In this document: positions 3,012-34,491 of the stretch, piece by piece
Numbering within the stretch: the stretch's first letter is position 1
How the letters are laid out: every line of letters starts with the position of its first letter
From: a virus
DNA length: 64,000 bases
Strand: one strand, 5' to 3'
Virus record (IMG/VR): IMGVR_UViG_3300010396_000038
Coordinates: 204 to 64,203 of that record
The notes under the pieces: generated by a model
Told to the model about the DNA's origin: nothing
Database searches by the model: none
Seen by the model: only the letters and a program-made list of their open reading frames with translations
Program-made: the position numbers and the translations under genes

Positions 3012-3874
3012 GGTTACACCCAACGTCGGTGCCGGACCTTCGGGTCGGGTACACGCAGATAGTAGAAGAGGTGCTCCACAACGGCTCGCCCGCGAGCCCG
3101 CGCGGGTACAGGACCTGGGAGATCGAGGACGCGTGCTTCCAGGTCGAGGACACGACGCGCGTCCTGCCGGTGGGGGTGGGCCGGGGGATCAAGCCGGAGA
3201 TCGGGGCGGCCGAGTCGCTGCTCCTGTGCGCCGGCCTGGCGAGCCCCAGCCTCCTGGTGTCCGCGAGCGGCGCGTTCCGCAGGTTCGTGGACGGCGGGGT
3301 GCTGCACGGGGCCTACGGGCCCCGCGTGCGCCCACAGATGGACACGGTGGTCAGGAGGCTGACCTCCGACCGCGACTCGAGGCAGGCCGTCGTGCAGGTC
3401 TGGGACCCGCTGTACGACCAGACGGACACGCGCGACCTGCCGTGCACGCTGGGCTTCGGGTTCCGCCTGCGCGACGACGGGCTGCACCTGTCGACGACCA
3501 TGCGCTCCCAGGACGTGATCCTGGGGCTGGCGTACGACGGGTTCATGTTCTGCCAGCTGGGCTGGACGGTCGCGAACGTGCTGGGCGTGGAGCTCGCCTC
3601 CTGGCGGCACCACGCGTACAGTCTGCACGTGTACGAGCGCAACCTGGACCTGGCCGAGAGGCTCGGCCCCACGGACGGGGAGACGGACGTCACGGAGCCG
3701 CTGGGCTTCCGGGGCGAGACCTACGAGGAGGCCCGGGGCAGGGCCGAGCTCGTGTACAACACGACGCCCGGCGCCGCCGGGCCGCTGGACCAGTACTCGG
3801 CCGACGAGCGCTGGTACATCACGACGCTGGCCGGCTGCGACAGGCTGACCAGCAAGTCCAACTTCGAGTCCTGA
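3008..3874 (+). CDS. thymidylate synthase (ThyA) family pyrimidine C5-modifying enzyme; specificity residue Asn->Asp suggests a dCMP substrate (hydroxymethylase or methylase)
   Basis: Gap-free alignment by eye to E. coli ThyA: DSRQAVVQVWD / DSRRIIVSAWN, catalytic LPC / APCH, MRSQDVILGLAYD / QRSCDVFLGLPFN. The Asn177 equivalent is Asp. ATGA overlap with the upstream gene. Confidence 0.8.
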   Translation: MRLHPTSVPDLRVGYTQIVEEVLHNGSPASPRGYRTWEIEDACFQVEDTTRVLPVGVGRGIKPEIGAAESLLLCAGLASPSLLVSASGAFRRFVDGGVLHGAYGPRVRPQMDTVVRRLTSDRDSRQAVVQVWDPLYDQTDTRDLPCTLGFGFRLRDDGLHLSTTMRSQDVILGLAYDGFMFCQLGWTVANVLGVELASWRHHAYSLHVYERNLDLAERLGPTDGETDVTEPLGFRGETYEEARGRAELVYNTTPGAAGPLDQYSADERWYITTLAGCDRLTSKSNFES

Positions 3875-7065: not shown

Positions 7066-7288
7066 CCTGGGCAAGATCCGGATCGTAGTGCGGGCGTCGC
7101 CGCCCGGGCTGCGCACGGTGGCCTCGTTCACGCGGCAGGGCCTCGAGGACAAGCTCGAGGCCGGCGACTGGACGGTGGACAGCACCCACGAGCGGACGAT
7201 CCCGATGAGGATCGGGCCCCTCACGTACCACCAGACGCAGCACTACGCGTACGTGGTGCCACGTGCTACAATCTCGAGCCATGACTGA
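7049..7288 (+). CDS. hypothetical protein (79 aa)
   Basis: High GC3; ends in an ATGA-type overlap with the next gene. Confidence 0.4.
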   Translation: MPPSSSLGKIRIVVRASPPGLRTVASFTRQGLEDKLEAGDWTVDSTHERTIPMRIGPLTYHQTQHYAYVVPRATISSHD

Positions 7289-8087
7289 CAAGATAAACCA
7301 GGTCCTCGTCATCGGGGACGTACACGGACACGCCGACAGGCTGCGGGCGCTCCTCGAGCAGGAGCGGCCGCACGAGCGCGGCGCGAGGGTCATCCAGCTG
7401 GGCGACCTCGGGCACTTCGGCGAGCACACCATGGTCGGCGACCTGGAGTGCTGGCGGATGGCGCTAGAGGGCGAGGTCGACACGGTGCTCTGGGGGAACC
7501 ACGACCGCGCGGTCATCGACACGCGCCACATGTTCGGCGGGTACTGCTCACCGCCGCCCGAGACGGTCGAGGTCATCAACCAGGTCGACGGCCAGGGCAG
7601 GCTCAAGCTCGCCGAGGAGGCGCACGGCTGGCTCCTGACGCACGCCGGCCTGCACCCGCAGATCCGGTACATGCCGGAGGCCGGCGAGGTGGACAGGACG
7701 GACCCGCGGGCGCTGGCCGACTGGATCAACACGAACCCGCCCTCGCCGTTCCGGCCCAGGCTGTACGGCGGGTCGCGCAGCATCGTGGATGCGATCGGGC
7801 CGCACCGCGGCGGCGGGTCGACGTTCGGCGGCGTCCTCTGGCGCGACATCCAGGAGAAGCTGTACGACGGGGTCCCGCAGGTCTTCGGACACTCCGCCAA
7901 CCGCAAGCACGCGGTACGCGGCGAGGCCGACAGGTGGTACTGCGTGGACATCGGCGGCAAGGGCGACCGCCCGAGCGAGGACTGCCTGGCGGCCATCTGG
8001 CTGCCGTCGCAGGAGATCGTGCGGGTGGACCTGGACCTGATGACGGAGGAGATCCGCGGGGACCTGTCGGAGAGGGACCTGCTGTGA
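7281..8087 (+). CDS. calcineurin-like metallophosphoesterase (Ser/Thr phosphatase / lambda-PPase fold)
   Basis: Motifs GDVHG, GDLGHFG and GNHD. Confidence 0.8.
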   Translation: MTDKINQVLVIGDVHGHADRLRALLEQERPHERGARVIQLGDLGHFGEHTMVGDLECWRMALEGEVDTVLWGNHDRAVIDTRHMFGGYCSPPPETVEVINQVDGQGRLKLAEEAHGWLLTHAGLHPQIRYMPEAGEVDRTDPRALADWINTNPPSPFRPRLYGGSRSIVDAIGPHRGGGSTFGGVLWRDIQEKLYDGVPQVFGHSANRKHAVRGEADRWYCVDIGGKGDRPSEDCLAAIWLPSQEIVRVDLDLMTEEIRGDLSERDLL

Positions 8088-8521
8088 GACCGCTGCTCCT
8101 GGCCGAGGCGCCGGCGCGCGACGACAACTGGCGGGAGCCGCTCAACGGGCGGGCCGGCCAGAACCTGATGAGGCACCTCGGCGTCGAGCCGACGTACGAG
8201 AACCTCAGGGAGCGGTTCGACGTCCTGAACGCCTCCGAGCGGCTCGAGGACGCGTACCCCTGGTCCGCGCCCGCGGCGAGGCTCCGGTGGACCGTGTGGC
8301 GCCTGCACGAGCCCACAGAGCGCCTCGTCGTGGTGTGCCTCGGCCGGCGCGCGGCGGCCGCGGTCGGCCTGCGGCCCGACCACCCCTGGGGCGAGTGGAC
8401 GGAGGTCGGCGACGACCTCGTCACGGCGCTCCCGCACCCCAGCGGCAGGTGCCGAGTGTACAACGACCCGAACTTCCGCGCGGTCGCCCGCGCGGTGCTG
8501 GAGGAGGCGCTGGATGCGTGA
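8084..8521 (+). CDS. uracil-DNA glycosylase superfamily protein (family-4-like)
   Basis: LLLAEAPA..REPLNGRAGQNLMRHLG resembles the GEAPG..G.PFVGxAG motif; C-terminal HPSGRC resembles the HPS motif. GTGA overlap start. Confidence 0.5.
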   Translation: MRPLLLAEAPARDDNWREPLNGRAGQNLMRHLGVEPTYENLRERFDVLNASERLEDAYPWSAPAARLRWTVWRLHEPTERLVVVCLGRRAAAAVGLRPDHPWGEWTEVGDDLVTALPHPSGRCRVYNDPNFRAVARAVLEEALDA

Positions 8522-8804
8522 CATCAAGATAGTCGACGACACCGACAGCGGCGACTGGCAGGCGATCTACGTGGACGGCGCGCTCCTCTACGAGGACCAC
8601 TACCTCGAGGCGGACCGGGTCCTGGACGTGCTCGGGGTCGGGTTCGAGTACGTCCGCGCCCTCACGGACGACTCGGGCCACTTCCCGAAGAGGTTCGCCG
8701 ACGTGACGACGGAGAGGGAGTCGAGGCGGCGCGAGCTCCTGGAGGAGGCGGAGCGCCTGCGCGAGCAGGCGGAGATCCTCGAGGCGGAGGCGGCGGGTGT
8801 CTAG
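8514..8804 (+). CDS. hypothetical protein (96 aa)
   Basis: High GC3; acidic C-terminal coiled-coil-like segment. Confidence 0.45.
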   Translation: MRDIKIVDDTDSGDWQAIYVDGALLYEDHYLEADRVLDVLGVGFEYVRALTDDSGHFPKRFADVTTERESRRRELLEEAERLREQAEILEAEAAGV

Positions 8805-9495
8805 CGACGGGCTCGGTGACCGCATCAAGCGGTACGAGAACGCGTACAGGCACCACCTGACGCCGAGGTCGTGCGTGGCGGTGCGGGTGGACGGGCGCGC
8901 GTTCCACACCTGGACCAAGCGGTGCGACCGCCCGTTCGACGACAGGCTTCACCGGGCCATGGTGCACGCCACGCGGGCGACGATCGGCGAGATGCAGGGC
9001 GTCAAGCTGGCCTACACCCAGTCGGACGAGGCGTCGTTCCTGCTGACCGACTTCGACACGCACGAGACTCAGGGGTGGTTCGGGTACAACCTGCAGAAGC
9101 TGGCGTCGGTCTCGGCGTCGGCGTTCACCGCGCACTTCAACCAGGCGACGCTGCCCTGGGCCTCGAGGACGCCGGGGCCGGCGACGTTCGACGCCCGCGC
9201 CTTCGTGGTGCCGACGGACGACGCGCCCAACGCGTTCGTCTGGCGGCAGCGGGACTGGGAGCGGAACAGCGTCCAGATGCTTGCGAGGTCGCGGTACTCG
9301 CACGCGGAGCTCCACGGGCTGTCCGCGGACGACGTCAAGCTGGCGCTGACCGCCGACGGGACGCCCTGGGAGGACCTGCCCGACCGGCACAGGCACGGCA
9401 CCTTCGTGACCAGGGACGGCGACGAGATCTGCCGGCGGCTGGAGTACGATGAGATATCGAGGCTGTGCAGCCCGAACCCAGAGGAGGAGTCTTGA
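8797..9495 (+). CDS. Thg1-like protein (tRNA-His guanylyltransferase family, 3'-5' nucleotide polymerase)
   Basis: N-terminal RIKRYE..VAVRVDGRAFHTWTK matches the Thg1 FEYVRxFE..VVRxDGRxFHxFxK. Conserved acidic SDE motif present. GTG start. Confidence 0.7.
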   Translation: MSSDGLGDRIKRYENAYRHHLTPRSCVAVRVDGRAFHTWTKRCDRPFDDRLHRAMVHATRATIGEMQGVKLAYTQSDEASFLLTDFDTHETQGWFGYNLQKLASVSASAFTAHFNQATLPWASRTPGPATFDARAFVVPTDDAPNAFVWRQRDWERNSVQMLARSRYSHAELHGLSADDVKLALTADGTPWEDLPDRHRHGTFVTRDGDEICRRLEYDEISRLCSPNPEEES

Positions 9496-10409
9496 CGATC
9501 AACAGGTCCGGCCAGACGTTCGCGCTCATGGAGGCGCACGACTTCAGCGCGCACGACGTGGGCCGGTTCGCGGTCGAGCGGCAGACGATCTGGCACAAGC
9601 GCACGATCCTCGGCGAGCCCGGGCCGTGGACGGAGGACCCGGCGCTCCAGAGGTTCCACTTCTGCAACGTGCAGCGCGACCTGGACCGAGGGACGGTCTA
9701 CCTCGCGACGCAGCTCGCGGCGCACGCGGGCGCCCCGCGGGCGGAGAGGCTGCTGAACACGGCGATGTACAGGCAGCTGAACAGGCGCGACCTCTGGGAG
9801 TCGGGGGCCGCCGGCTGGATCGCGCCCACCGCCGACGGCGTGCTGGGCGCGTGCGAGGCGCTGGAACGACACCGGCAGGCGGGCAACTCGATCGGCCCCA
9901 CGTCGTGGATGCCGTCGACCGGCACCGTCTCGGGCTGCCTCCGGGAGGTCGGCCTCGGCGTCGTCGAGCACCTGGGCGAGCTGGACGAGCTGTGCGACTC
10001 CGTCACCGACGGCTCCCTCGAGCCGGTGCAGAAGTACATGAAGAAGAACTGCCGGCGCCTGACGGGCATGGTCGGGTTCCAGGTGTGCCTGGACCTGACG
10101 TACACCTACCCGAACCTCTCGGACGACGTCTGGGTGTGGCTGTACGGCGGCCACGAGGACACCGGCTCGCACTGGACCGCGCGCCGGCTGCGCCCCGACA
10201 TGACCACGCTGGAGTGCTGCCGGTGGCTCAGGGACACGCAGGACGCGTGGCTGGCGCCGCACGGCTGGGGCGACGTCGCGTGGGAGGGCAAGCCGAGGCT
10301 GTCCCTGGCGGACGTGGAGCACCTGCTGTGCGAGTACAGGAAGTGGGTGCGGGCGACCCTCACCAGGGGCGCGAAGCGCAAGTACCGCGGGCTCGGGGAG
10401 GGGTCGTGA
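9492..10409 (+). CDS. hypothetical protein, possibly aGPT-pyrophosphorylase-like DNA base-modification enzyme
   Basis: TTG start with RBS GAGGAGGAG and a TTGA overlap. Conserved-looking block EPGPWTEDPALQRFHFCNVQRDLDRGTVYL. Family assignment comes from memory only. Confidence 0.3.
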   Translation: MTINRSGQTFALMEAHDFSAHDVGRFAVERQTIWHKRTILGEPGPWTEDPALQRFHFCNVQRDLDRGTVYLATQLAAHAGAPRAERLLNTAMYRQLNRRDLWESGAAGWIAPTADGVLGACEALERHRQAGNSIGPTSWMPSTGTVSGCLREVGLGVVEHLGELDELCDSVTDGSLEPVQKYMKKNCRRLTGMVGFQVCLDLTYTYPNLSDDVWVWLYGGHEDTGSHWTARRLRPDMTTLECCRWLRDTQDAWLAPHGWGDVAWEGKPRLSLADVEHLLCEYRKWVRATLTRGAKRKYRGLGEGS

Positions 10410-11299: not shown

Positions 11300-13081
11300 T
11301 TGGCGCTTGCCAGGATCCAGGGCGACAGGATCGTCCTCGAGTCGGAGTGGCGGGAGCGGGAGCTGTGCAAGATGGTCCCCGGCTGCAAGTGGGACGAGGC
11401 GGCGCGACTGTGGTGGGCGCCGCTGTCGTGGGCGACCTGCGTCGCGCTGCGCGGCGTGTTCGAGGAGCACCTCGAGATCGGCCCGGACCTGAACGCGTGG
11501 GCCGCCACGCAGGTCGAGGAGCGCGTCCGGCCGTGCATGGAGCTCAGGCAGGCCTCCGAGACCGACACCCCGGTGTACGGCAGCGCCGTCTCCGAGCCGA
11601 GGCCGGCGCCCGGGCCCGACGACCTCTTCCTCGAGCCGCGGCAGGCGGTCGCGGTGGAGTTCCTCGCCACGGCGCGCAGGGCGCTGCTCGGCGATGGCAT
11701 GGGCTCCGGCAAGACGATCGAGGCCATCTGCGCGGTCGAGGAGCTGGCGGTCCGCGAGGGCGCCGAGGCCGTCTTCCCGTGCCTCGTGGTCTGCAACAAC
11801 TCGATGGTCTACGGGTGGGAGGAGGAGCTCAACAAGTGGGCGCCCCACCGCTCGACCGCCGTCCTCAAGGGCGGCGCCGCCACGAGGCGCAAGCTGATTG
11901 AGTCTGGGCCGGACTACCTGGTGATCAACTGGGAGAGCCTGGCCGCGCACACGCGGCTCGCGGGCTACGGCTCGATCGCCCTCTCCGACAAGGAGAAGGA
12001 GCCGAAGGAGTTCAACGCGGCCGGGATCAGGACCGTCGTGGCCGACGAGGCGCACCGCGCCAAGAACCCCAAGGCCAAGCAGACGCGCGCCTGGTGGTGG
12101 GTCAGCTGGGAGGCGGACAACTCGATCGCCATGAGCGGCACGCCGACGGACAAGACGCCGGAGAGCCTCTGGTCGATCATGCACGGCGTGGCGCCCGACG
12201 AGTGGCCGGCCAAGAGCCCGTGGGTCGACAGGTACTGCACCAAGTCGTGGGGGTACTTCGGCGGGCTCGAGGTCAACGGGCTGCGCGGCGACACGCGCGA
12301 GGAGCTCTACAAGTACCTCGACCCCAGGTTCATCCGCAGGCCGACTCAGGTGGTCTGCCCGGACATCGCGGAGAAGCTCCCGCCCCAGATCAGGTACGTG
12401 GACCTGCCGCCGAAGCAGCGCAGGGCGTACGACGCGATGAAGAAGGAGATGCTCGCGGAGCTGGAGGCCGGCGTCCTGCTGGCGACCGACCCGATCACGA
12501 AGCTCCTCCGGCTCCACCAGCTGGCGTCGGCGTACGGCGAGGTGGTCGAGGAGACCGTCGACGAGCACGGCAAGCTCCGCCAGACCTACAGGATGGAGGA
12601 CCCGTCGGTCAAGGCCGACGCGCTCCTGGACCTGGTCGAGGAGCTCGACGAGGACCCGGCCGTGATCTTCGCCAGGCACCGGCAGCTGATCGACGTGTGC
12701 GCTGCCAGGCTGGAGAAGGCCGGCGTGCCGTACGGGCTGCTCACGGGCGCCGTGACGCCCCTGGACCGCGCGCAGAACGTGCAGCGGTTCCAGGCCGGCG
12801 AGCTCCCGATCATGCTGTGCACGCTCGGCGCCGGCGCGGAGTCGGTCACGCTGACGCGGGCCCGCCACGTGGGGTTCCTGCAGCGGGGCTCGCTGCTCCA
12901 GAACAAGCAGGCCGAGGACCGGGTGTGGCGCCGGGGCCAGGACAGGCCCGTGCAGCCGATCATCTGGGTGGCCCGGAACACCGTCGAGGAGGCCGTGATC
13001 GAGCGCGGGGGCGACGCCGAGGAGGCGTTCCAGGACGTGGTGCGCGACGAGGAGACCCTGAGGAGGATGCTGACGACATGA
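11300..13081 (+). CDS. SNF2/DEAD-like superfamily 2 helicase
   Basis: Walker A DGMGSGKT, DEAH box (VVADEAHR), and a C-terminal helicase domain with QRxGRxxR-like RVWRRGQ. TTG start with RBS GAGGAGG. Confidence 0.85.
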   Translation: MALARIQGDRIVLESEWRERELCKMVPGCKWDEAARLWWAPLSWATCVALRGVFEEHLEIGPDLNAWAATQVEERVRPCMELRQASETDTPVYGSAVSEPRPAPGPDDLFLEPRQAVAVEFLATARRALLGDGMGSGKTIEAICAVEELAVREGAEAVFPCLVVCNNSMVYGWEEELNKWAPHRSTAVLKGGAATRRKLIESGPDYLVINWESLAAHTRLAGYGSIALSDKEKEPKEFNAAGIRTVVADEAHRAKNPKAKQTRAWWWVSWEADNSIAMSGTPTDKTPESLWSIMHGVAPDEWPAKSPWVDRYCTKSWGYFGGLEVNGLRGDTREELYKYLDPRFIRRPTQVVCPDIAEKLPPQIRYVDLPPKQRRAYDAMKKEMLAELEAGVLLATDPITKLLRLHQLASAYGEVVEETVDEHGKLRQTYRMEDPSVKADALLDLVEELDEDPAVIFARHRQLIDVCAARLEKAGVPYGLLTGAVTPLDRAQNVQRFQAGELPIMLCTLGAGAESVTLTRARHVGFLQRGSLLQNKQAEDRVWRRGQDRPVQPIIWVARNTVEEAVIERGGDAEEAFQDVVRDEETLRRMLTT

Positions 13082-13254
13082 GGGACGACCTGAAGGACCT
13101 GGGGCTGTACGCGCTGGGATCCGCCTACGGCGTGTGCGTCGGGCTCACCGCCGTCGAGGGCGGCGTCGGGTGGACGGTCGCGGGAGTCGCGACCGGGCTC
13201 CTGTCCATCGGGTACGTGATCGCCGTCAGGTGGGGCGACGATGACGAGGGCTAG
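13078..13254 (+). CDS. small membrane protein (58 aa)
   Basis: ATGA overlap start; Gly/Ala-rich TM segments. Confidence 0.4.
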   Translation: MRDDLKDLGLYALGSAYGVCVGLTAVEGGVGWTVAGVATGLLSIGYVIAVRWGDDDEG

Positions 13255-13417
13255 CTCCGCGCGCGTCTGGTTCGTGGTGATGCTCGCCTGCGCGGGGCTG
13301 TGGACGGTCGTGGGAGTGGTCACGCGCGAGGACGGGACGCTGCACTTCCTCGACGGCCTGATCGCCGGAGTAATGTTGATGAACGCCGGGAGGGAGCTCA
13401 GCCGTGTCCGTCGATAG
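13241..13417 (+). CDS. small membrane protein (58 aa)
   Basis: ATGA-type overlap; hydrophobic core VWFVVMLACAGLWTVVGVV. Below the ORF-track cutoff. Confidence 0.35.
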   Translation: MTRASSARVWFVVMLACAGLWTVVGVVTREDGTLHFLDGLIAGVMLMNAGRELSRVRR

Positions 13418-13625
13418 CTCGACTGAGCGCGCGTACGGCCCGACCACGCCGGAGGACGTCGCGCGGCTGCGCAAGGTCTACCCCGTGGAGACCGCGGGGC
13501 GCACGGACGAGTACCTGGCACAGGTGATCGAGGGCGCCAAGGACTGGATCGGGCAGATCAAGTGGTCCTGGACGGTCGTGGCCAGCAGCCACCTACGGAC
13601 CGGGAGGTACAGCCAAAATGGCTAG
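13404..13625 (+). CDS. hypothetical protein (73 aa)
   Basis: GTG start overlapping the upstream gene; high GC3. Confidence 0.4.
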   Translation: MSVDSSTERAYGPTTPEDVARLRKVYPVETAGRTDEYLAQVIEGAKDWIGQIKWSWTVVASSHLRTGRYSQNG

Positions 13626-14661
13626 GGTCGACGTCGAGCGCCTGGACGCGCTCGTGGGCGAGGGCTGGCTCAAGGTCCAGCACCACCCAGAGTTCCCGCT
13701 CAGGATCTACAACTACACGGCGCAGACGCAGTTCAAGCGGCACTGGACGGACCTGACGGTCATGTGCCGCGGGCTGATCGTCACGGACGGCGGCCACGTG
13801 GTCGCGAGGCCGTTCCCCAAGTTCTTCAACCACGACGAGGTCGACGGCCTCCCGGACGAGCCGTTCACCGTGACGGAGAAGCTCGACGGCTCGCTCGGGA
13901 TCATGTTCCCGGGGCCGGACGAGGAGCTCCACGTCGCGTCGCGCGGCAGCTTCGTCTCGGAGCAGGCCAGGATGGGCTCGATCATGCTCGAGGAGTACCT
14001 CGACGAGCACGGCGAGCTCCGCTGGCGCGCCGGCACGACGACGCTGTTCGAGATCATCTACCCGGAGAACCGGATCGTGGTCGACTACGGGGGACGGCGG
14101 GAGCTGGTGTACCTGGCCACGATCGACAACGAGACGGGCGACGACGCCCCGCCCGAGCTGGAGACGCGGTGGGAGGGCGCCAGGGCCCGGACGTACGACT
14201 CGGACGACATCGAGGCGCTCTCGCGGCTGACGGCCCCGAACAGCGAGGGCTTCGTGGCGCGGTTCTCGTCGGGCCTGCGGGTCAAGATCAAGCTGGACGA
14301 GTACGTGCGGCTGCACAGGCTCCGCTCCCAGCTGTCCGCGAGGTACGTCTGGGACTGCCTCAGGAACGGCGAGGACGTCGTCGGCGTGATCGGGCACCTG
14401 CCCGACGAGGTCTACGGGGAGGTGATCAGGGTCCGCGACGAGATCCAGGCGGAGCACGACCTGCTAGTCAAGCGGTGCCGCGCGGTCTTCGAGGGCCGGC
14501 CGACGGCCGACCGAAAGGGGACGGCGCTGTACTTCATAGGGTCGAGGGCCTGCACGAGCGTGCTGTTCGCCATGCTCGACGGTAAGCCGTGGGAGGACCT
14601 GGCGTGGCGCCAGGTCGAGCCCGAGCACAAACCTATCTGGGAGGACGCGGAGTGGGACTGA
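13618..14661 (+). CDS. RNA ligase, T4 Rnl1 family (tRNA repair ligase)
   Basis: RIYNYTAQ..CRGLIV..ARPFPKFFNHDE..TEKLDGSLGIMF aligns with T4 Rnl1 RIFSYNYAS..CRGIMFE..SRPMEKFFNLNE..TKEDGSLVS, including the nucleotidyltransferase motif I lysine. Confidence 0.8.
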   Translation: MARVDVERLDALVGEGWLKVQHHPEFPLRIYNYTAQTQFKRHWTDLTVMCRGLIVTDGGHVVARPFPKFFNHDEVDGLPDEPFTVTEKLDGSLGIMFPGPDEELHVASRGSFVSEQARMGSIMLEEYLDEHGELRWRAGTTTLFEIIYPENRIVVDYGGRRELVYLATIDNETGDDAPPELETRWEGARARTYDSDDIEALSRLTAPNSEGFVARFSSGLRVKIKLDEYVRLHRLRSQLSARYVWDCLRNGEDVVGVIGHLPDEVYGEVIRVRDEIQAEHDLLVKRCRAVFEGRPTADRKGTALYFIGSRACTSVLFAMLDGKPWEDLAWRQVEPEHKPIWEDAEWD

Positions 14662-15161
14662 TACTTGTAGACGTCGAGGCCACCGGCATCTCGCCGCACG
14701 GCGGGGTCATGACGGAGTTCGGCGCGGTCGAGTTCAAGAGCAGGGCGACGTACCACGGCGTGCTGTGGGACGCGGAGCCGGACCCGGAGAACCCCGCCAA
14801 GCCGCGGCTGCTGGAGAGACAGCGCCCGGAGCACAAGCAGTTCGAGCACGAGCACGACGTCATGTCGGCCTTCGAGGGGTGGCTGGGCCGGGTCACGAAG
14901 GGCCGGCCGATCTTCGTGTCGGACAACCCGGCGTACGACTTCATGTGGGTCGCGTGCTACTTCGACAAGACGCTCGGGCGGAACCCGTTCGGGCACTCGG
15001 CGAGGCGCATCGGCGACTTCTACGCCGGCCTGTGCGGGGACTTCCAGCAGACACAGAAATGGAAGAGCCTGCGGGTGACCAAGCACGACCACAACCCCGT
15101 GAATGACGCGATGGGCAACGCCGAGGCGCTCGCGGAGCTGATCCACGTGGCGGAGGCATGA
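14652..15161 (+). CDS. DEDD-family 3'-5' exonuclease (DnaQ/RNase T-like)
   Basis: Exo I motif ILVDVEATG; later DNPAYD and HNPVNDA motifs. GTG start overlapping the upstream gene. Confidence 0.7.
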   Translation: MGLILVDVEATGISPHGGVMTEFGAVEFKSRATYHGVLWDAEPDPENPAKPRLLERQRPEHKQFEHEHDVMSAFEGWLGRVTKGRPIFVSDNPAYDFMWVACYFDKTLGRNPFGHSARRIGDFYAGLCGDFQQTQKWKSLRVTKHDHNPVNDAMGNAEALAELIHVAEA

Positions 15162-15349
15162 TGACGCTCGAGGAGTGGCAGGCGGGCGTCACGGGCGTCG
15201 AGCGGGTCGGCGACGGCTACCGCTACGCGAGCGGCGGCGTGACGTACCACGGGACCGTGGCGGCGCTCAGGACGGTCCTGAGGTCGCTGGACGAGCGCGT
15301 GTGGGCGCCGGCGCTTGGACCGGGACGAACGACGAACGGAGAGACATGA
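15158..15349 (+). CDS. hypothetical protein (63 aa)
   Basis: ATGA overlap start. Confidence 0.4.
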   Translation: MMTLEEWQAGVTGVERVGDGYRYASGGVTYHGTVAALRTVLRSLDERVWAPALGPGRTTNGET

Positions 15350-15819
15350 GCACGATCACGCCGCCCAAGGAGGCGGTTCACGGGCGCAAGTCCGTCTTCC
15401 TGGCGGGCGGCATCACGGGCTGTCCGGACTGGCAGACGGACGCCGTCGACATGCTGGAGAGGGAGCACCACAGGGCCGGGATGGCGGGCGTGCCGTTCGA
15501 CGTGTACAACCCGCGGAGGCCGGACTTCGACACGTCCGACCCCGGCATGACGGTGCAGCAGATCCACTGGGAGCACAGGCACCTGCGCAAGGCGGCCGTG
15601 ATCCTGTTCTGGTTCTGCGCCGAGACCCTGCAGCCGATCTCGCTGTACGAACTCGGTGCGTGGTCCATGACGAACAAGCCGATCGTGGTGGGCTCGCACC
15701 CGGACTACCCGCGCCGGCAGGACGTGGTGATCCAGACGATGCTGTCGCGGCCGGACGCCTACGTCATAGGCGACCTGGAGGAGACCGTGCGGCTGGCCGA
15801 GAGGACGCTGCTCACGTGA
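15346..15819 (+). CDS. nucleoside 2-deoxyribosyltransferase-like / DNPH1-like protein
   Basis: SVFLAGGITGCPDWQ Rossmann-like N-terminus, typical of the NDT/DNPH1 fold. ATGA overlap start. Confidence 0.45.
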   Translation: MSTITPPKEAVHGRKSVFLAGGITGCPDWQTDAVDMLEREHHRAGMAGVPFDVYNPRRPDFDTSDPGMTVQQIHWEHRHLRKAAVILFWFCAETLQPISLYELGAWSMTNKPIVVGSHPDYPRRQDVVIQTMLSRPDAYVIGDLEETVRLAERTLLT

Positions 15820-16049
15820 TGACGGAGGAGCAGATCGAGGAGACGGCCGCGGCCCTGCGGAGGGACGTGGACCGGCTGGAGCTGGAGAGGCTCAGGGCGC
15901 TCTCGGACAAGGGCGCGTACTTCCTGAGGGTGGCGCGCGACGCGTTCGCCGAGATGGGGCACGGCACCGACGTGACCGACCTGGACGAGTTCCTGGACGA
16001 CGCGCGCGAGGTACACGCGACCCTGACGCGCGCCCTGGTGCGGCCGTGA
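15819..16049 (+). CDS. hypothetical protein (76 aa)
   Basis: Start overlaps the upstream stop (GTGATG). Confidence 0.35.
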   Translation: MTEEQIEETAAALRRDVDRLELERLRALSDKGAYFLRVARDAFAEMGHGTDVTDLDEFLDDAREVHATLTRALVRP

Positions 16050-16169
16050 GCTGGCTGACGAGGTGGCTGCTGACCAGGCTGGTGCGCCTGGCGCGGAGGC
16101 GGGTCGAGAAGCTCACCGCCAGGATTTCGGACCCGGGAGGCCCCCGCCGGGTCTAGTAGTATCTTCTCC

Positions 16170-16673
16170 GTGACGAATAACGGAGAGACCAACCCGAAGG
16201 TCGACGCGGCGACCAGGGACGGCAAGGCGCCGCTCGACCTTCTGGAGAACACGGCCGACGAGGCCATCGCCTGGGCGCTCAAGGACGGCGCGACCAAGTA
16301 CGGGAAGCAGAACTACAGGACGATCCCGATCTACATGTCGACGTACGCGGCGGCGATCCGCCGGCACGTCGGCGCGTGGCTCGACGGCGAGGACGACGCC
16401 GCCGACTCGGGACTGCACCACCTCGCCCACGTCGGGGCGAACCTGCACGTCGTGTTCGGCGCGATGGACGCCGGCACGCTCGTGGACGACCGCGGGCCGC
16501 AGGAGCGGTCCCCGGAGCAGGAGGCCCGCTCGACGGCGTCGAACGGGCAGCACTCCCGCGGACTGGGCGCGGAGGGCTGGAGGGAGCGGCTCTACCCCTG
16601 CGCGGACTGCGGTAAGGTCAAGAACGCGCGGCCGGACATGTACTGCGGCGTGTGCGTGGAGGACTATCAATGA
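16170..16673 (+). CDS. dATP/dGTP diphosphohydrolase N-terminal-domain-like protein
   Basis: KAPLDLLENTADEAIAWALKDGATKYGKQNY resembles the K.R.DL.P..AL..VA.VL..GA.KY..NW signature, recalled from memory. C-terminal CxxC..CxxC. Confidence 0.4.
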   Translation: MTNNGETNPKVDAATRDGKAPLDLLENTADEAIAWALKDGATKYGKQNYRTIPIYMSTYAAAIRRHVGAWLDGEDDAADSGLHHLAHVGANLHVVFGAMDAGTLVDDRGPQERSPEQEARSTASNGQHSRGLGAEGWRERLYPCADCGKVKNARPDMYCGVCVEDYQ

Positions 16674-16861
16674 CGGAGCAAGACCTGCACGACGTCAAGG
16701 GGCTCGTGCACTACCTCAACACGGCGCTCGGCCGGCAGCACGAGGGGCAGGACGTCGAGGCCGAGGTCGTCCTGCACAGCAGGAAGACCGGCGACTGGGT
16801 CGGCCGCGTCGCCTACAACGGCGTGGACCAGTACGTCTTCGTGCCGGGTGACGACCGGTGA
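16670..16861 (+). CDS. hypothetical protein (63 aa)
   Basis: ATGA overlap start. Confidence 0.4.
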   Translation: MTEQDLHDVKGLVHYLNTALGRQHEGQDVEAEVVLHSRKTGDWVGRVAYNGVDQYVFVPGDDR

Positions 16862-17430
16862 GCGAGATCGAGCTGTACTCGGGGGAGTACCTGGACCTCG
16901 AGCGCCCGGACCCGAGGCGGATCAACCTGGACGACATCGCGGTGGGGCTCTCGAGGGAGCACCGGTACGCGGGCCAGTCCAGGCTGCCGTACACGGTCGC
17001 GGAGCACGCGTGCCTCGTCCAGAGGCGAGTGCGCGACGAGGGCGGCACCGCGCTGGACCAGCTGGCGGCGCTCCACCACGACGACTCGGAGGCCCTGATC
17101 AAGGACGTCCCGGCGCCGCTGAAGAGGCTGCTGCCGGAGTACAGGGCGGTCGAGACGCGGGTCATGGCGGCGATCCTTACGGCCCTCGGGCTCGACGGCC
17201 TCGGCGTCGACGACGAGATCGTGCACGACGCGGACATGTGGGCGAGGGCGCAGGAGGCGCACGAGCTCATGCCGTCCAGGGGCGTAGGCGTGCACTGGGA
17301 CCTCGAGTACGTCTGGGACGGCAAGTGGCGGCGCCTCGGTCAGGTGGACGCCGACGACGCGCGGGTCCGGTGGCTCGCGACGCACTACCTGCTGATGGCC
17401 ATGTCCGGCCTGAGAAACGTGGAGGTCTGA
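16858..17430 (+). CDS. HD-domain phosphohydrolase (YfbR-like 5'-deoxynucleotidase family)
   Basis: H..EHA..V and LHHDDSEALIKD HD motifs. GTGA overlap start. Confidence 0.65.
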   Translation: MSEIELYSGEYLDLERPDPRRINLDDIAVGLSREHRYAGQSRLPYTVAEHACLVQRRVRDEGGTALDQLAALHHDDSEALIKDVPAPLKRLLPEYRAVETRVMAAILTALGLDGLGVDDEIVHDADMWARAQEAHELMPSRGVGVHWDLEYVWDGKWRRLGQVDADDARVRWLATHYLLMAMSGLRNVEV

Positions 17431-20272: not shown

Positions 20273-21511
20273 ATGTCAGAGATCAACTTCGTAGATTGCC
20301 AGGGCCTCGCGGGTGCGTTCACCCTCGGGACCGTACAGGCGGGGTTCAATCTCGTCCACCGCGTCTCGCTCGAGGGCGGGTTCGGGGACGAGGTCGTGGA
20401 TCGCAACCGCCACCTGCTGGGCGACGGGTGGCGCCAGGACGAGGGCACGCTGCCCGAGGAGTGGGCCAGGGGCGCCGCCGGCGTCGTGTGCGGCACGCCG
20501 CCGTGCGCCGGCTTCTCCATGATGAACACCCGGAACGAGCGCGGACCGGACAACCCGATCAACCACTGCATGGCGAAGCTCGTCGAGTACGGCGCGCTGT
20601 GCTGGGGCGCCGACGGGGAGCGGGGCGCCGAGATCATCTCCTTCGAGTCGGTCCAGGGCGCCTTCAAGAAAGGCCGCGGCCTCATGCAGGCCCTCCGGGA
20701 GCTGGCCGACGAGACCTCGGGCCAGCGGTACGACCTGCACCACGTGATGATGTCGGGCGCGAGCGTCGGCTCGGCGCAGTACCGCCCGAGGTACTACCTC
20801 GTGCTCTCGCGGGTGCCGTTCGGCATCGACGAGCCGCGGCGGGAGGACACGCCTGACGGGCGGGTCGTGACGTACTACGACGCGCTCGCGGACCTCATGG
20901 GCCTCGACCACGAGACCTGGGACGACCAGGCCTACCTCTACGGGCCGGCCAGCGAGTACGCCGCCGCCCTGCGCAGGGCCGACGGCATGGTCGACCAGCA
21001 CTTCGCGAAGGACGGCACGCTGAGCCGGGTCATCCGGGAGGCGTGCGAGCGCGGGATGCAGCCGAAGTGGTACCTGAGCCAGGCGTTCGACTGGCTGGAC
21101 TACCACCCGCCGGAGTTCGCGGGCTCGCGCGGCGTGCGGAAGGTCTCCCGGGAGGGATCGACCTACCGCGGCTTCTCGTGGCCCAGGCGCGTCCCGCCGG
21201 ACAAGAACGGCTGGGTCGTCACGGGCGGTGCGGTGCGCGAGTTCATCCACTGGTCCGAGCCGAGGCTGTTCACCATCCGCGAGCTGACCAGGATGATGGG
21301 GTACCCGGACGACTGGCGCTGGCCGGACAAGACCACCGGCAAGACCGGCGCCCTCATCGGGAAGTGCTGCCCGGTCACGTCCGGTCGCTGGCTGGCGACG
21401 TGGTTCCGGCGCTCGCTCGAGGGGTCCCCGGGCGCCCTGGGCGAGTCGATCGGCGAGCGGGAGTACCTCTACGACTACACGAGGACATTCAAGTCATGGG
21501 AGCAGTCATGA
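20273..21511 (+). CDS. DNA (cytosine-5)-methyltransferase
   Basis: Motif I FVDCQGLAGAFTLG, motif IV GTPPCAGFSMMN (PC), ENV-like FESVQG, QYRPRYYLV (QxRxR). Confidence 0.85.
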   Translation: MSEINFVDCQGLAGAFTLGTVQAGFNLVHRVSLEGGFGDEVVDRNRHLLGDGWRQDEGTLPEEWARGAAGVVCGTPPCAGFSMMNTRNERGPDNPINHCMAKLVEYGALCWGADGERGAEIISFESVQGAFKKGRGLMQALRELADETSGQRYDLHHVMMSGASVGSAQYRPRYYLVLSRVPFGIDEPRREDTPDGRVVTYYDALADLMGLDHETWDDQAYLYGPASEYAAALRRADGMVDQHFAKDGTLSRVIREACERGMQPKWYLSQAFDWLDYHPPEFAGSRGVRKVSREGSTYRGFSWPRRVPPDKNGWVVTGGAVREFIHWSEPRLFTIRELTRMMGYPDDWRWPDKTTGKTGALIGKCCPVTSGRWLATWFRRSLEGSPGALGESIGEREYLYDYTRTFKSWEQS

Positions 21512-22300: not shown

Positions 22301-23176
22301 ATGAGCGAGTACACGATAGGCGAGGGCGCGGAGTCGTTCCTGCGCGCGAAGCGCCGGCGGCTGGCCGCGTCCTCCTATGAGTCGTACTCGGCCGTGATCG
22401 CGAAGCTGGTGCGGCACTTCGGGGCGGACACGCCCGTGTCCAGGCTCGAGCCGCCGGACGGCACCGACCTCATGGAGCAGTTCATGGAGGACCACTGGGG
22501 CGAGACCCCGTACGCCTTCAACCGGAACATGAGCGTGGTCCGCGGCCTCATGGAGCACCTGATCCAGCGGGAGCGGCTGCACCGCGACCCGACCAAGCCC
22601 ATCGAGCGGGCGCGGCCCGAGCGGCACGCCAGGACCACGTTCGACCGCGAGACGGTGGACCAGATCCTGGCCGCGGCCGAGGGCCCGCGCGACCGGATCG
22701 CGCTCAGGCTGCTGCTGGTCTACGGCCTGCGTAAGGGCGCCCTGGGCGGGATCCAGCTCGTGTGCTTCGACACCGTCAGGCGGATGGTGTCGTTCAAGAC
22801 CAAGGGCGGGCGCTACCACGCCGTCCCGATCGTCGGGGACGAGCTCTGGGCCGACCTCGCCGAGCTCGGGGGCCACCCCGGGGACTACCTGCTCCACAGG
22901 CGCGGGACGACGAAGGAGCCGATGAGCCCGCACGGCGTGCACCTCTGGTGGTACGCGAGGCTCGCGGACGCCGGCGTGGTGGAGCGGGGGACGACCTCCG
23001 GCCAGCGCATGCACAAGGCGCGGCACACCGCCGGCCAGCGGGTCCTCGACGGGACGGGCAACCTGAAGGCGGCGCAGCGGCTGCTCGGGCACGCCTCGAT
23101 CCAGACGACCGGGGACGTCTACACGGACTGGGACTCGGAGGACCTCCGAGGCACGATGGAGAGTCTCCGGGACTGA
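22301..23176 (+). CDS. int: tyrosine integrase/recombinase
   Basis: R..(K)..ARHTAGQR (HxxR) and LLGHASIQTTGDVY catalytic Tyr motif. Confidence 0.85.
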   Translation: MSEYTIGEGAESFLRAKRRRLAASSYESYSAVIAKLVRHFGADTPVSRLEPPDGTDLMEQFMEDHWGETPYAFNRNMSVVRGLMEHLIQRERLHRDPTKPIERARPERHARTTFDRETVDQILAAAEGPRDRIALRLLLVYGLRKGALGGIQLVCFDTVRRMVSFKTKGGRYHAVPIVGDELWADLAELGGHPGDYLLHRRGTTKEPMSPHGVHLWWYARLADAGVVERGTTSGQRMHKARHTAGQRVLDGTGNLKAAQRLLGHASIQTTGDVYTDWDSEDLRGTMESLRD

Positions 23177-23295: not shown

Positions 23296-24453
23296 GTGCC
23301 GAGCGATACGTGGGTCTACTGGGACAGCAGGTACGACTGCCGTTCCGTCGGCCACTGGCCGAACGCCGTCTACCAGTTCCGGCGCCGGCACCCAGACGGG
23401 TCGACGGGCCCCGCGCTGGCCGGACGCCTCTGCCCGCGCTGCGACAGCGTCCGGCCCCTCGACCGCGACAACTTCTACATCCGGCCCAGCGGGCGCGCGG
23501 AGTACTGCGTCACCTGCCACACCGAGTACTACCAGGAGCGCGCCCGGAACCGGCGCGCGGCCCAGAACCCGGCGCGGCTGCAGTTCGGGGTCGAGATCGA
23601 GTACTCCTTCAAGTCCGGCCGCGTGGACCGGCCCGACCGGGGGACGCTCGCCCAGCTGCTCCGGGAGGCCGGGATCGACTGCCAGGAGCAGAACTACAAC
23701 CACCAGGTCCGGGCCGGCTGGAAGATAGTGCCGGACGCGTCGGTGACGGCGGGCGGCGAGCTCGTCTCCCCGCCGATGCGGTTCGAGGACGGGTCGTTCG
23801 AGCAGATCACCAAGGCGTGCGACGTGCTGCGCGCCGCGGGGTGCACGGCGGACTCGACGTGCGGCCTGCACGTCCACCTGGAGGTCCGCGGGTACGGCCC
23901 GCGCAAGATCAAGGACGTGTACCGGACCTGGTACAACAACCAGGAGACGATCGACCTGACGGTGGCCCGCAGCCGGCGGGACGGGCGGTGGTGCTCGCAC
24001 CTGACGCAGAGCGACATGAGCCGGGTCGAGGGCATCGACCCGACCGAGAACGCGACCAAGACCGGGCTGGCGCGGATCGACCGCTACAAGAACGTCAACG
24101 GCAACTGCTACGGCAGGCAGGGGACGCTCGAGATCCGGCTCCACCAGGGCACAGTCCTCGGGAGCAAGATCGAGCACTGGGTGCGGTTCTGCAAGTCCAC
24201 GTTCACGCTGGCCCACGAGGGGGTCACGGACGAGCAGGCCGGGCTGGGGTCGCTGCTGACGGCGTGCCGGTCCCACGGGCTGCCGGAGGAGTCGGTCGCG
24301 TTCATGCAGAGGCGGGCGCTCCAGCTGTCCACGCCCCGCGGTCGCCGGCCGGAGCCGGAGCCGGCCGGGGTGCTCAACGAGACGCAGCTTTACGTGACGC
24401 GGGCGGACGGCACCACGACGCCCATCGGTGACCTCGCGCTGGTGGGCTCATGA
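23296..24453 (+). CDS. amidoligase (Amidoligase_2 family, GS-like fold)
   Basis: Signature ..ADSTCGLHVHLEV.. plus a conserved Arg/Glu-rich core. GTG start. Confidence 0.7.
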   Translation: MPSDTWVYWDSRYDCRSVGHWPNAVYQFRRRHPDGSTGPALAGRLCPRCDSVRPLDRDNFYIRPSGRAEYCVTCHTEYYQERARNRRAAQNPARLQFGVEIEYSFKSGRVDRPDRGTLAQLLREAGIDCQEQNYNHQVRAGWKIVPDASVTAGGELVSPPMRFEDGSFEQITKACDVLRAAGCTADSTCGLHVHLEVRGYGPRKIKDVYRTWYNNQETIDLTVARSRRDGRWCSHLTQSDMSRVEGIDPTENATKTGLARIDRYKNVNGNCYGRQGTLEIRLHQGTVLGSKIEHWVRFCKSTFTLAHEGVTDEQAGLGSLLTACRSHGLPEESVAFMQRRALQLSTPRGRRPEPEPAGVLNETQLYVTRADGTTTPIGDLALVGS

Positions 24454-24701
24454 TCGAGCTCCTGTGGCCGAACGGCGAGGTGTCGTCCGGCGAGACGTGG
24501 CGGGACGTCGAGGACTCGGTGAGGTCCTCGCAGTGGTCCCCGTACAAGACGCGGGCCGAGTTCAGGCGCGAGATGCGCCGCAGGGCCCTGGTGTGGAGCG
24601 GGCAGACCGTCCGCACCGGCCGGACCTCCGAGTCCTTCATCAAGGCGCTCGGGGCAGTCAACATGTTCATGATCGTGGAGGACGGCGATGTCGCAGAGTA
24701 G
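24450..24701 (+). CDS. hypothetical small protein (83 aa) ending in ..EDGDVAE
   Basis: ATGA overlap start; sandwiched between the amidoligase and the C26 peptidase; acidic C-terminus. Confidence 0.45.
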   Translation: MIELLWPNGEVSSGETWRDVEDSVRSSQWSPYKTRAEFRREMRRRALVWSGQTVRTGRTSESFIKALGAVNMFMIVEDGDVAE

Positions 24702-25632
24702 GAAGACGAGAGAGCGTGGGCCCGAGCGGCCCCGGGTGCTCGTGCTGGAGGCCCTGGCCGGGGGCGCGGACTGCGTGCAGGCGGCCGGCGGGGCGCCGCT
24801 CGACGTGCGCCCGACGGACATCGAGCACGCGGAGGCGATGATCGAGGAGGGCGACTGGCACGGCCTGCTCCTCACGGGCGGCGGCGACGTGGACCCGCGC
24901 ATGTACGGGCAGCGCCCCAAGCCGGAGGTGTACGGCGTCTCGGAGACGCGGGACCTCATAGAGACGTACGCGCTGGAGATGGCCCGGGACAAGGGCGTGC
25001 CGGTGCTGGGCATCTGCCGGGGCAGCCAGCTGATCAACGTCGAGGCGGGCGGGGCCCTCCAGCAGCACATCGACGGCCACCGGGGCGTCGACCACGACGT
25101 GCGCGCCAAGAAGGGTTCGGTCCTGCGCAGGGCCGCCGGCAGCAGCCCGCGGGTCGTGTCCCTGCACCACCAGCAGATCTCCCGCGTGGCCCGGGGCTAC
25201 GTGGTCTCCGGCCGCGCGCCGGACGGCACGGTCGAGGCGATCGAGTCGCGCAACGGGCGCGTCCTGGGCGTGCAGTTCCACCCGGAAATGGACCCGTACG
25301 AGACGTACGCCCAGGGCATCTTCAGGTGGCTCGTGCTCGAGTCGGCGCGGCGCGCCGGGATGCCCGACCCGCCGCTGGGGACCCTCCGGCGCAAGTCGGT
25401 GGCGCCCAGCAGGTACCAGTCGGTGCGCCGCAAGCGCGCGAGCCGGCCGGTCCGGGCGCCCCGGCCGACGTTCGGGCCGGGCGTCCGGGTGTCGTGGATC
25501 TGCCCGCACTGCGGGATCAGGTTCGACAAGGAGCAGGACAAGATCGACCACGTCGAGATCCTGCACGGCCCGGACGCGCAGCTCAGGCGCGCCAGGTTCA
25601 TCGAGAGAGCGACGAAAGGATACGGACGATGA
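24688..25632 (+). CDS. class I glutamine amidotransferase-like peptidase C26 (gamma-glutamyl hydrolase, PuuD-like) fused to a C-terminal C2H2 zinc finger
   Basis: GICRGSQLINV catalytic Cys. VSLHHQQI resembles SFHHQ. HPE His. C-terminal CPHCGIRFDKEQDKIDHVEILH = C-x2-C-x12-H-x4-H. Confidence 0.7.
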   Translation: MSQSRKTRERGPERPRVLVLEALAGGADCVQAAGGAPLDVRPTDIEHAEAMIEEGDWHGLLLTGGGDVDPRMYGQRPKPEVYGVSETRDLIETYALEMARDKGVPVLGICRGSQLINVEAGGALQQHIDGHRGVDHDVRAKKGSVLRRAAGSSPRVVSLHHQQISRVARGYVVSGRAPDGTVEAIESRNGRVLGVQFHPEMDPYETYAQGIFRWLVLESARRAGMPDPPLGTLRRKSVAPSRYQSVRRKRASRPVRAPRPTFGPGVRVSWICPHCGIRFDKEQDKIDHVEILHGPDAQLRRARFIERATKGYGR

Positions 25633-28088: not shown

Positions 28089-28123
28089 CTAGCAGTAACG
28101 ACAAGACCGACGAGAGGAACCGC

Positions 28124-34445: not shown

Positions 34446-34491
34446 TACAATTGAAGCATGATTCGCATCAAGATAACGATAGGAGACGCGA

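Follow-up and report, generated by a model that had tools for sequence, protein, structure and literature searches.

A predicted Rnl1-type RNA ligase with a subfamily-specific C-terminal domain and an adjoining Cap18-like exonuclease gene in a high-GC myovirus

A 64,000-nucleotide stretch of viral DNA (IMG/VR record IMGVR_UViG_3300010396_000038, positions 204 to 64,203; hereafter the window, in which all coordinates are counted) was analyzed around two overlapping genes. A preliminary description, made from the letters alone, had assigned the first to the T4 Rnl1 family of tRNA-repair RNA ligases and the second to the DnaQ-like exonucleases. The best explanation of the first gene is a catalytically competent Rnl1-type ligase that carries a C-terminal domain particular to its subfamily and most likely works in RNA repair, a reading to which we give a probability of about 0.62. 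Its adenylyltransferase domain is of the Rnl1 type with an active site that is intact as far as sequence tells, and the predicted protein is very probably an active RNA ligase. The product predicted for the second gene is a true member of the DEDDh exonucleases, from the Cap18 family, and its functional partnership with the ligase is possible.

An Rnl1-type adenylyltransferase domain

An open reading frame (ORF) of 347 amino acids had been described at position 13618 and is present exactly so (13618..14661, + strand). It starts with ATG, has a Shine-Dalgarno sequence (GGGAGG) 10 nt 5′ of the start, and carries the coding mark of a third-position GC content of 0.93–0.97. The sole Pfam match of the ligase is PF09511 (RNA_lig_T4_1), found in the profile hidden Markov model (HMM) search that the preliminary description had proposed, with E = 3e-18 and 66.9 bits against a curated cut-off of 28.3 bits, over profile positions 2–227 of 227. 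PHROG 562, the T4 gp63/Rnl1 family, is matched at 2e-59, and PDB sequence matches are limited to the T4 Rnl1 entries 2C5U, 5TT6, and 9DO4 (E ~5e-14). These E-values exclude chance as the source of the matches. An AlphaFold model built from the homologue alignment (predicted local distance difference test score [pLDDT], 94) has T4 Rnl1 as its top Foldseek match in PDB (4e-19), followed by fungal Trl1-LIG, archaeal Rnl3, and Naegleria Rnl5, with DNA ligases at only ~1e-3. Rnl1 thus ranks first in Pfam, PDB, and Foldseek alike, and neither a DNA ligase nor a capping enzyme is the top match in any of them.

The T4 Rnl1 query sequence, which is identical to that in NC_000866, was mapped onto the window ligase by global alignment. 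The motifs RIYNYT, CRGLIV, RPFPKFFN, and EKLDGSL occupy T4-aligned positions, so that the motif-by-motif correspondence described earlier stands, while the letters then given for three of them (RIFSYNY, CRGIMF, and RPMEKFFN) are those of T4 itself. The adenylation lysine of KxDGSL had been recognized correctly; T4 K99 aligns with K88. Among the other mapped positions, T4 R54, K75, and F77 correspond to R51, K68, and F70, beside which F69 is conserved too; T4 D101 and G102 correspond to D90 and G91, E159 to E145, E227/G228 to E210/G211, and K240/K242 to K223/K225. At T4 K119 the lysine is replaced by an arginine (R109). All mapped positions are invariant across 49 homologues that are 42%–54% identical to the window ligase. 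In T4 Rnl1, R54, K75, and F76 have ATP-binding roles (PMC6379707). From these conserved residues, Lys88 would attack ATP to form ligase-AMP, the AMP would then be handed to the 5′-phosphate end of an RNA, and attack by the 3′-OH end would seal the break.

A C-terminal domain distinct from that of T4 Rnl1

Similarity to T4 Rnl1 (gp63) is ~26%–33% identity and is confined to residues 27–238. The NCBIfam equivalog model TIGR02308 gives the window ligase 61.3 bits, over profile positions 31–258 of 373 only, against a cut-off of 242.25 bits and a score of 634.5 bits for T4 Rnl1 itself. When the ligase family was compared with T4 Rnl1 using hhalign, the alignment ended at T4 residue 255. A profile of the C-terminal 110 residues, searched against PDB, retrieved neither T4 Rnl1 nor any other significant match, and the C-domain profile aligned to T4 residues 246–374 with an hhalign probability of 0.15%. 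The C-domain of the window ligase alone has no match to PHROG 562, compared with 3.6e-34 for the T4 C-domain alone. Both C-domains are all-helical, and the full-length Foldseek alignment with T4 Rnl1 has a template modeling (TM) score of 0.53, so that the two domains may yet be equivalent in structure. By these sequence comparisons the window ligase is not an ortholog of T4 RnlA, and its C-terminal domain appears as a different, subfamily-specific helical domain with no detectable sequence similarity to that of T4. Of the earlier assignment to the Rnl1 family, the part that concerns the adenylyltransferase domain holds, and the part that would extend it to the whole T4 protein does not.

This distinction bears on substrate. 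The domain joined to the nucleotidyltransferase core is what defines each RNA ligase clade, and the C-domain of T4 Rnl1 is the source of its specificity for the tRNA anticodon loop (PMC6379707). Because that specificity domain is not detectably conserved, a tRNA substrate cannot be transferred from T4 by homology, a useful correction for ligases without the T4 C-domain, for which tRNA specificity should not be assumed. The ligase domain of fungal Trl1 (Rnl6 clade; 6N67/6N0T) is less similar to the window ligase than T4 Rnl1 is, and Trl1 differs further in its own C-domain, its 2′-PO4 requirement, and its fused kinase and cyclic phosphodiesterase domains (PMC6379707).

Ligase relatives and their neighbors

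The ligase is another example of a very large and already annotated subfamily that is common in actinobacterial phages. Its family comprises 7309 proteins at E ≤ 1e-5 among 8000 scored candidates. Matching phage records number 1821, of which 180 cover at least 80% of the query and so share its C-domain; these are mostly from Streptomyces and Arthrobacter phages and are annotated as RNA ligase. Arthrobacter phage Seahorse gp81 and the proteins of Streptomyces BE-cluster phages (StarPlatinum gp211) belong to the same subfamily, with 36%–42% identity over both domains to query residue ~338, and are encoded by high-GC actinobacterial phages.

Gene neighborhoods were compared in a sample of 80 related IMG/VR viral loci. 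A homologue of T4 Pnkp lies within 10 kb of the ligase in 11 of them, mostly directly downstream, with its start within a few bases of the ligase stop. The same pairing is seen in Seahorse, where the RNA ligase gene (gp81) overlaps gp82, annotated as a polynucleotide kinase, and in StarPlatinum, where the ligase and a polynucleotide kinase lie inside a tRNA gene array with a transfer-messenger RNA. Together these pairings are good evidence, by association, that the subfamily acts in RNA heal-and-seal repair.

Two relatives have unusual arrangements. The homologue P0005 (51% identical; L164, 10001–11017) is a lone, moron-like + strand gene among − strand tail-tube and tail genes. In a 345-kb phage contig (L161), a LAGLIDADG endonuclease domain follows motif I of an Rnl1-like ORF and lengthens it to 710 amino acids (11327–13456), as an intein or homing element would; genes for RlaP, Pnkp, NAMPT, and a homologue of the exonuclease lie within 10 kb.

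Proposed role of the ligase

The element, a myovirus, carries genes for sheath, baseplate, and fibers, and its GC content is ~70% across the whole window. Megablast with the region from 11 to 18 kb found no match among 50,697 phage records, so that no deposited genome is a close relative of this phage; the best matches of its PolA are actinophage PolA proteins at ~34% identity. A contig of 128 kb is recorded as carrying the ligase protein, which leaves about half of the genome outside the window. A Logan contig with 1 mismatch in 7357 nt to the window continues 7.3 kb beyond its 3′ end, and this extension encodes glycosyltransferases and methyltransferases and no kinase.

The ligase is proposed to repair RNA of the host or the phage that host defense nucleases have cut, with tRNA as the most plausible target. 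Its use on nuclease-damaged RNA, probably tRNA, is moderately likely. The window provides an RNA and translation-rescue context in the form of a Thg1-like enzyme, three tRNA genes, and a stand-alone GGQ/RF-1 domain protein; such genes are parts of the phage RNA-repair repertoires described in PMC7824862.

Several observations weigh against a role in repair. Pnkp is absent within 10 kb in 69 of the 80 related viral loci. Bacterial homologues that are ~50% identical, on contigs of 0.5–0.8 Mb, are lone genes with no repair partners, and the closest homologue of all, on a 178-kb contig, has no repair neighbor. The T4-type tRNA-specificity domain (T4 residues 255–374) is not detectably conserved, and no biochemical data for the subfamily were found in the literature searched. 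In the window, pseT neither adjoins the ligase gene nor lies near it as in T4; a phmmer search with T4 PseT against all ORFs of at least 40 amino acids gave no match at E ≤ 10, query searches of the ORFs found no RtcB or RlaP, and the 7.3 kb beyond the 3′ end hold no Pnkp. This absence of Pnkp covers ~71 kb of the phage and is not proof of absence from the phage as a whole.

The ligase might obtain suitable ends in two ways. It may directly seal the 5′-phosphate/3′-hydroxyl (5′-P/3′-OH) nicks made by metal-dependent nucleases, or the ends may first be prepared by a Pnkp whose gene lies outside the window or by a different phosphoesterase. Direct sealing is feasible since P2-OLD and PARIS AriB produce 5′-P/3′-OH ends and T4 Rnl1 needs no partner to reseal a single OLD nick in tRNA (PMC12445682; PMC12409363). 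That the ends are instead supplied by an outside Pnkp seems the less probable course.

The preliminary description had taken the ligase for an enzyme of anticodon-loop repair, as in T4. In that classical scheme, a Pnkp encoded outside the window would heal the 2′,3′-cyclic-phosphate/5′-OH ends left by PrrC/RloC-like nucleases, and the ligase would reseal the anticodon loop. The half of the genome outside the window has room for such a gene, and Seahorse, StarPlatinum, and 11 of the 80 IMG/VR loci combine a ligase of the same subfamily with Pnkp, which keeps the proposal alive in part. It is nevertheless doubtful: the 71 kb of sequence hold no Pnkp, the Cap18-like exonuclease here takes the place behind the ligase where Pnkp lies in relatives, and the tRNA-specificity domain of T4 Rnl1 is not detectably conserved.

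A linked toolkit of metallophosphoesterase, a kinase related to 5-hydroxymethyldeoxyuridine (5-hmdU) DNA kinase (HMUDK), Thg1, and Rnl1 was considered as a conserved module and rejected, because the HMUDK_hel protein has no Walker A motif and metallophosphoesterase and Thg1 genes each occur near the ligase in 1 of the 80 loci. No Rnl1 gene was found within 10 kb of Thg1 in 16 Thg1 loci.

A mainly structural use of the ligase homologue, in tail-fiber attachment as for T4 gp63, with the exonuclease serving as a DNA replication or recombination nuclease, is very improbable. To our knowledge, the attachment function of T4 has no sequence signature. The annotation of PHROG 562 names both an RNA ligase and a tail fiber protein attachment catalyst, the phage has the sheath, baseplate, and fiber genes of a myovirus, and the homologue P0005 lies among tail genes. 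For the DNA-nuclease part, the exonuclease gene stands in a block with genes for an SNF2 helicase, PolA, and nucleotide metabolism, and PolA, ThyA, or SNF2 is frequent in viral exonuclease loci. Against this, the strict conservation of all catalytic residues points to enzymatic use of the ligase, and its gene belongs to the early/DNA-metabolism block, with the tail genes on the other strand. RNA repair by an active ligase is the better account.

The downstream exonuclease and its kinship with Cap18

The exonuclease ORF ends at 15161, as first described, and overlaps the ligase gene. Its longest form starts at GTG 14589 and encodes 190 amino acids with a 73-nt overlap. A start at GTG 14652, giving 169 amino acids and a 10-nt overlap with the ligase stop, is preferred because three lines of evidence agree on it: homologues begin at the equivalent position, the gene call on a near-identical ENA contig begins there, and GGAGGA lies 6 nt 5′ of it (14640–14645).

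The earlier label of DnaQ-like exonuclease fits the fold, and the closest characterized relative is Cap18 of the cyclic oligonucleotide-based antiphage signaling system (CBASS). The family has 697 representatives at E ≤ 1e-3. The DEDDh residues D7, E9, D96, H147, and D152 are invariant in 63 sequences, which also share conserved NPFG and SDNPAFD blocks. A PDB profile search returned Cap18 (7T2S) over the full length at E = 3.3e-30; the next matches were the PolC exonuclease domain (1e-8, over half the length) and RNase T (3e-5). The AlphaFold model (pLDDT, 96) likewise has 7T2S as its top Foldseek match, and its fold matches those of Cap18, RNase T, DnaQ, and TREX. Cap18 is 27% identical by BLASTP (E = 4e-12), with an hhalign probability of 99.8%, and the PADLOC model PDLC00753 (a CBASS-type "Effector, exonuclease") matches the protein at 2.5e-13. 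A Pfam match to the Rv2179c-like family fell below threshold (18.7 versus 27 bits). On these sequence grounds, the gene is assigned to the Cap18 family as a DEDDh exonuclease. The DnaQ-like gp196 encoded in the StarPlatinum tRNA array was considered as a relative and is not homologous.

Cap18 of Escherichia coli upec-117 is a full-length homologue (187 versus 169 amino acids) with the N-x3-D, NPFG, and H-x4-D motifs in common. Its gene shares a CBASS operon with those for CdnC, HORMA, and TRIP13, whereas the window gene lies in a phage beside an RNA ligase. One preprint (10.1101/2025.03.04.641389) reports that the CBASS-associated Exo clade, which includes the upec-117 protein, cleaves pA[2′-5′]pG and 2′-5′ oligoadenylate, that this cleavage restrains cyclic GMP-AMP (cGAMP) synthesis, that residues F120, V55, and P15 of VcExo set the 2′-5′ selectivity, and that the Serratia member SmExo showed no activity on DNA or RNA; the passages searched make no mention of phage homologues. 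Close cousins of this CBASS regulator, whose cutting of 2′-5′ linkages was reported only recently, occur in hundreds of phages.

These parallels suggest that the exonuclease could be unrelated to the ligase and act, by analogy, as a phage copy of Cap18 that hydrolyzes 2′-5′ cyclase intermediates or signals and blunts CBASS immunity. Cap18 is by far its best solved relative (3e-30 versus 1e-8 for the next), the two share the motifs named above, members of the reported clade suppress cGAMP synthesis by cleaving pA[2′-5′]pG (10.1101/2025.03.04.641389), and the phage carries other counter-defense genes, namely, an NAD+ (nicotinamide adenine dinucleotide) salvage pair and a C5 methylase. The identity to Cap18 is just 27%, however, and closer relatives of the window protein are found in RNA-repair or AbiE operons. 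Homologues of upec-117 CdnC, HORMA, and TRIP13 were absent near 80 bacterial exonuclease relatives; these queries were narrow, with CdnC as the sole CD-NTase (cGAS/DncV-like nucleotidyltransferase) query, and divergent CD-NTases could escape them. We consider an anti-CBASS function improbable.

Relation of the exonuclease to the ligase and to RNA repair

The preliminary description had suggested that the exonuclease may process RNA ends for the ligase. The two genes lie in a run of overlapping genes, with overlaps of 8, 10, 4, and 4 nt between 13404 and 15819, and overlap holds for all genes from 13241 to 15819. Genes for an SNF2 helicase, PolA, a ThyA-like protein, and dCMP deaminase lie 5′ of the ligase, and those for a deoxyribosyltransferase-like protein, a MazZ-like protein, and an HD phosphatase lie 3′ of the exonuclease. 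The exonuclease is probably co-transcribed and translationally coupled with the ligase, as is every gene in the block, and because the whole block overlaps, their overlap follows a local rule and carries no special signal.

The pairing of the two genes is not conserved. No exonuclease homologue was found in any of the 80 ligase loci, even by HMM at E ≤ 1, and of 80 viral loci sampled for the exonuclease, one holds an Rnl1 gene, the copy interrupted by a LAGLIDADG element in the 345-kb phage. Counting RtcB, RlaP, Pnkp, and Rnl1 as RNA-repair genes, 9 of the 80 exonuclease loci have one, within 2 kb in 7. Control loci of dCMP deaminase have none (0/80; P = 0.0015). Against the stricter control of NAMPT, another accessory gene of large phages, with a repair gene in 14 of 80 loci and within 2 kb in 3, the enrichment loses significance (P = 0.16 and 0.91). 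Where a repair gene is present, its spacing is at most 2 kb in 7 of 9 exonuclease loci versus 3 of 14 NAMPT loci, a post hoc comparison. Single ThyA-like and NAMPT sequences, likewise scanned as controls, retrieved no relatives.

Bacterial genomes present a different picture. The nearest bacterial relatives of the exonuclease are 46%–70% identical, and in a Pfam census of the ORFs that flank them RtcB ranks first. Tight RlaP-Exo-RtcB operons occur in nine Chitinophagaceae/Bacteroidota loci, with Exo proteins 46%–49% identical to the window exonuclease, and AbiEi-AbiEii-Exo three-gene operons occur in four metagenome-assembled genomes (MAGs) of Atribacterota and the candidate phyla radiation (CPR). 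The RlaP-Exo-RtcB/AbiE operon loci are L250, L253, L255, L257, L259, L260, and L263 (~6.9–10.1 kb each), L229 (6472–8441), and L228 (1691–3742). In the Chitinophagaceae, the homologue lies between RlaP and RtcB, neither of which is present in the window. Fic and other conflict-system genes are also found near bacterial relatives. Neither operon arrangement was found described in the literature searched, and that literature does not list a DEDDh exonuclease among the standard parts of RNA-repair operons with RtcB and RlaP, a concept of Burroughs and Aravind (PMC7824862; PMC12776372). RlaP adds 1–2 nucleotides, often wrong ones, to RNA 3′ ends (PMC12776372), and AbiEii/MenT toxins extend tRNA acceptor ends (PMC10435456; PMC7450476).

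From these operons a role of the exonuclease at RNA 3′ ends is credible as a possibility, but they come from few lineages, and RNA repair does not stand out in the data from phages. In a cooperation of the two phage proteins, the DEDDh enzyme would trim damaged or wrongly extended RNA 3′ ends, such as ragged products of nucleases or ends lengthened by toxins of the AbiEii/MenT type, and thereby leave a clean 3′-OH for ligation or for CCA rebuilding. Consistent with this are the 10-nt gene overlap, the homologues (46%–52% identical) in the nine RlaP-Exo-RtcB loci and the four AbiEi-AbiEii-Exo MAGs, the repair genes within 2 kb in 7 of 80 exonuclease loci versus none of 80 control loci for dCMP deaminase, the addition of nucleotides to 3′ ends by RlaP and AbiEii/MenT, and the status of RNase T as the nearest canonical fold. 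Set against it are the unconserved pairing (0/80 and 1/80 loci), the lack of significance relative to NAMPT (P = 0.16), the restriction of the bacterial operons to just two or three lineages, the uninformative nature of an overlap shared by the whole block, and the inactivity of SmExo on ordinary RNA and DNA (10.1101/2025.03.04.641389). We hold such cooperation to be a tentative proposal; the RNA-end processing suggested earlier stays possible through the bacterial operons, and the phage loci lend it no significant enrichment.

A further idea, which we rate as rather unlikely, starts from the tight partners of the exonuclease family (CD-NTase, RlaP, and AbiEii), because all of these are nucleotidyltransferases. 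The exonuclease might be a phage "eraser" of nucleotides placed by host defense nucleotidyltransferases, whether AbiEii/MenT extensions of tRNA 3′ ends, linear 2′-5′ CBASS intermediates, or both. With the ligase acting on internal nicks and the Thg1-like polymerase on 5′ ends, it would then complete a Pnkp-free, three-ended kit for tRNA maintenance. The probability that remains for the exonuclease goes to DNA metabolism or an unknown function. A Cap18-family exonuclease in the slot that holds Pnkp in relatives is unusual among the sampled loci, and it may form a functional pair with the ligase. Of the two proteins, the exonuclease is of greater interest, with possible uses in RNA-end repair, in undoing toxin-added nucleotides, and in silencing cyclic-nucleotide immunity.

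Other genes in the window

The features identified in the window are listed in Table 1.

Table 1. Positions of the ligase, the exonuclease, and other features in the window
Feature	Position	Strand	Details
dCMP deaminase	1987-2454		
ThyA-like protein	3008-3874		
Calcineurin/ApaH-like metallophosphoesterase	7263..8087	+	PF00149, 7.5e-12; weak ApaH match
UDG-like protein	8084-8521		
Thg1-like 3′-5′ nucleotidyltransferase	8797..9495	+	PF04446, 8.7e-29, 100.5 bits
5-hmdU DNA kinase helical-domain-only protein	9465-10409	+	PF18723, 110 bits; no Walker A
Rnl1-like ATP-dependent RNA ligase gene	13618..14661	+	347 aa; coordinates include stop
Adenylyltransferase domain, ~residues 1-238	13618..14331	+	Rnl1-type N sub-module and nucleotidyltransferase motifs I, III, IV, and V
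Lys88 codon, predicted AMP-accepting lysine	13879..13881	+	Motif I EKLDGSL; aligned with T4 Lys99; invariant in homologues
All-helical C-terminal domain, ~residues 239-347	14332..14658	+	Subfamily-specific; helices 241-343 in model
Cap18-like DEDDh 3′-5′ exonuclease gene	14652..15161	+	169 aa from GTG 14652; alternative GTG 14589 gives 190 aa
Nucleoside 2-deoxyribosyltransferase-like protein	15346-15819	+	
MazZ-like dATP/dGTP diphosphohydrolase N-domain protein	16170-16673	+	
HD dNMP phosphatase	16858-17430	+	
C5 cytosine DNA methyltransferase	20273-21511	+	
Tyrosine recombinase	22301-23176	+	
Amidoligase	23296-24453		
Peptidase_C26/GATase	24688-25632		
tRNA-Trp-CCA	28018-28089	+	ARAGORN and Rfam
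tRNA-Arg(CCT), NMN-adenylyltransferase-like/NUDIX protein, and NAMPT	34372-36877	+	
tRNA-Arg-CCT	34372-34445	+	ARAGORN and Rfam
NMN-adenylyltransferase-like/NUDIX protein	34492-35415	+	
NAMPT	35420-36877	+	
tRNA-Glu-CTC	61302-61375	−	ARAGORN and Rfam
Stand-alone RF-1/GGQ domain protein	63440-63829	−	129 aa; PF00472, 57 bits; weak PrfH and ArfB similarity

Thg1 is counted among phage RNA-repair enzymes (PMC7824862), and the Thg1-like enzyme of the window may be a further member of this set, acting in tRNA 5′-end repair. Across 16 phage Thg1-like loci, RlaP is nearby in six, Pnkp in two, and RtcB in one; at one locus (L008), a Thg1-like gene lies directly 3′ of an Rnl1-like ligase gene. The stand-alone GGQ protein is probably a peptidyl-tRNA hydrolase that rescues stalled ribosomes, as would suit a phage prepared for damage to tRNA. 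An Rfam search of the window found nothing beyond the three tRNAs.

CthPnkp and lambda phosphatases heal RNA 3′-phosphate ends. The metallophosphoesterase could be a candidate healing enzyme of this kind; it has no PDB sequence match, a homologue occurs near the ligase in 1 of the 80 loci, and nothing ties it to the ligase.

The HMUDK_hel protein and the dCMP deaminase, ThyA-like, UDG-like, amidoligase, and Peptidase_C26/GATase genes look like a thymidine hypermodification set, and the run of nucleotide-pool enzymes from 15346 to 17430 hints at non-canonical DNA bases. The nicotinamide mononucleotide (NMN) adenylyltransferase-like/NUDIX protein and NAMPT form an NAD+ salvage pair of the type used against NAD-depleting defenses, and the same pair is present in a second locus (L023). 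The C5 methyltransferase and tyrosine recombinase may indicate that the phage is temperate or that it carries a mobile cassette.

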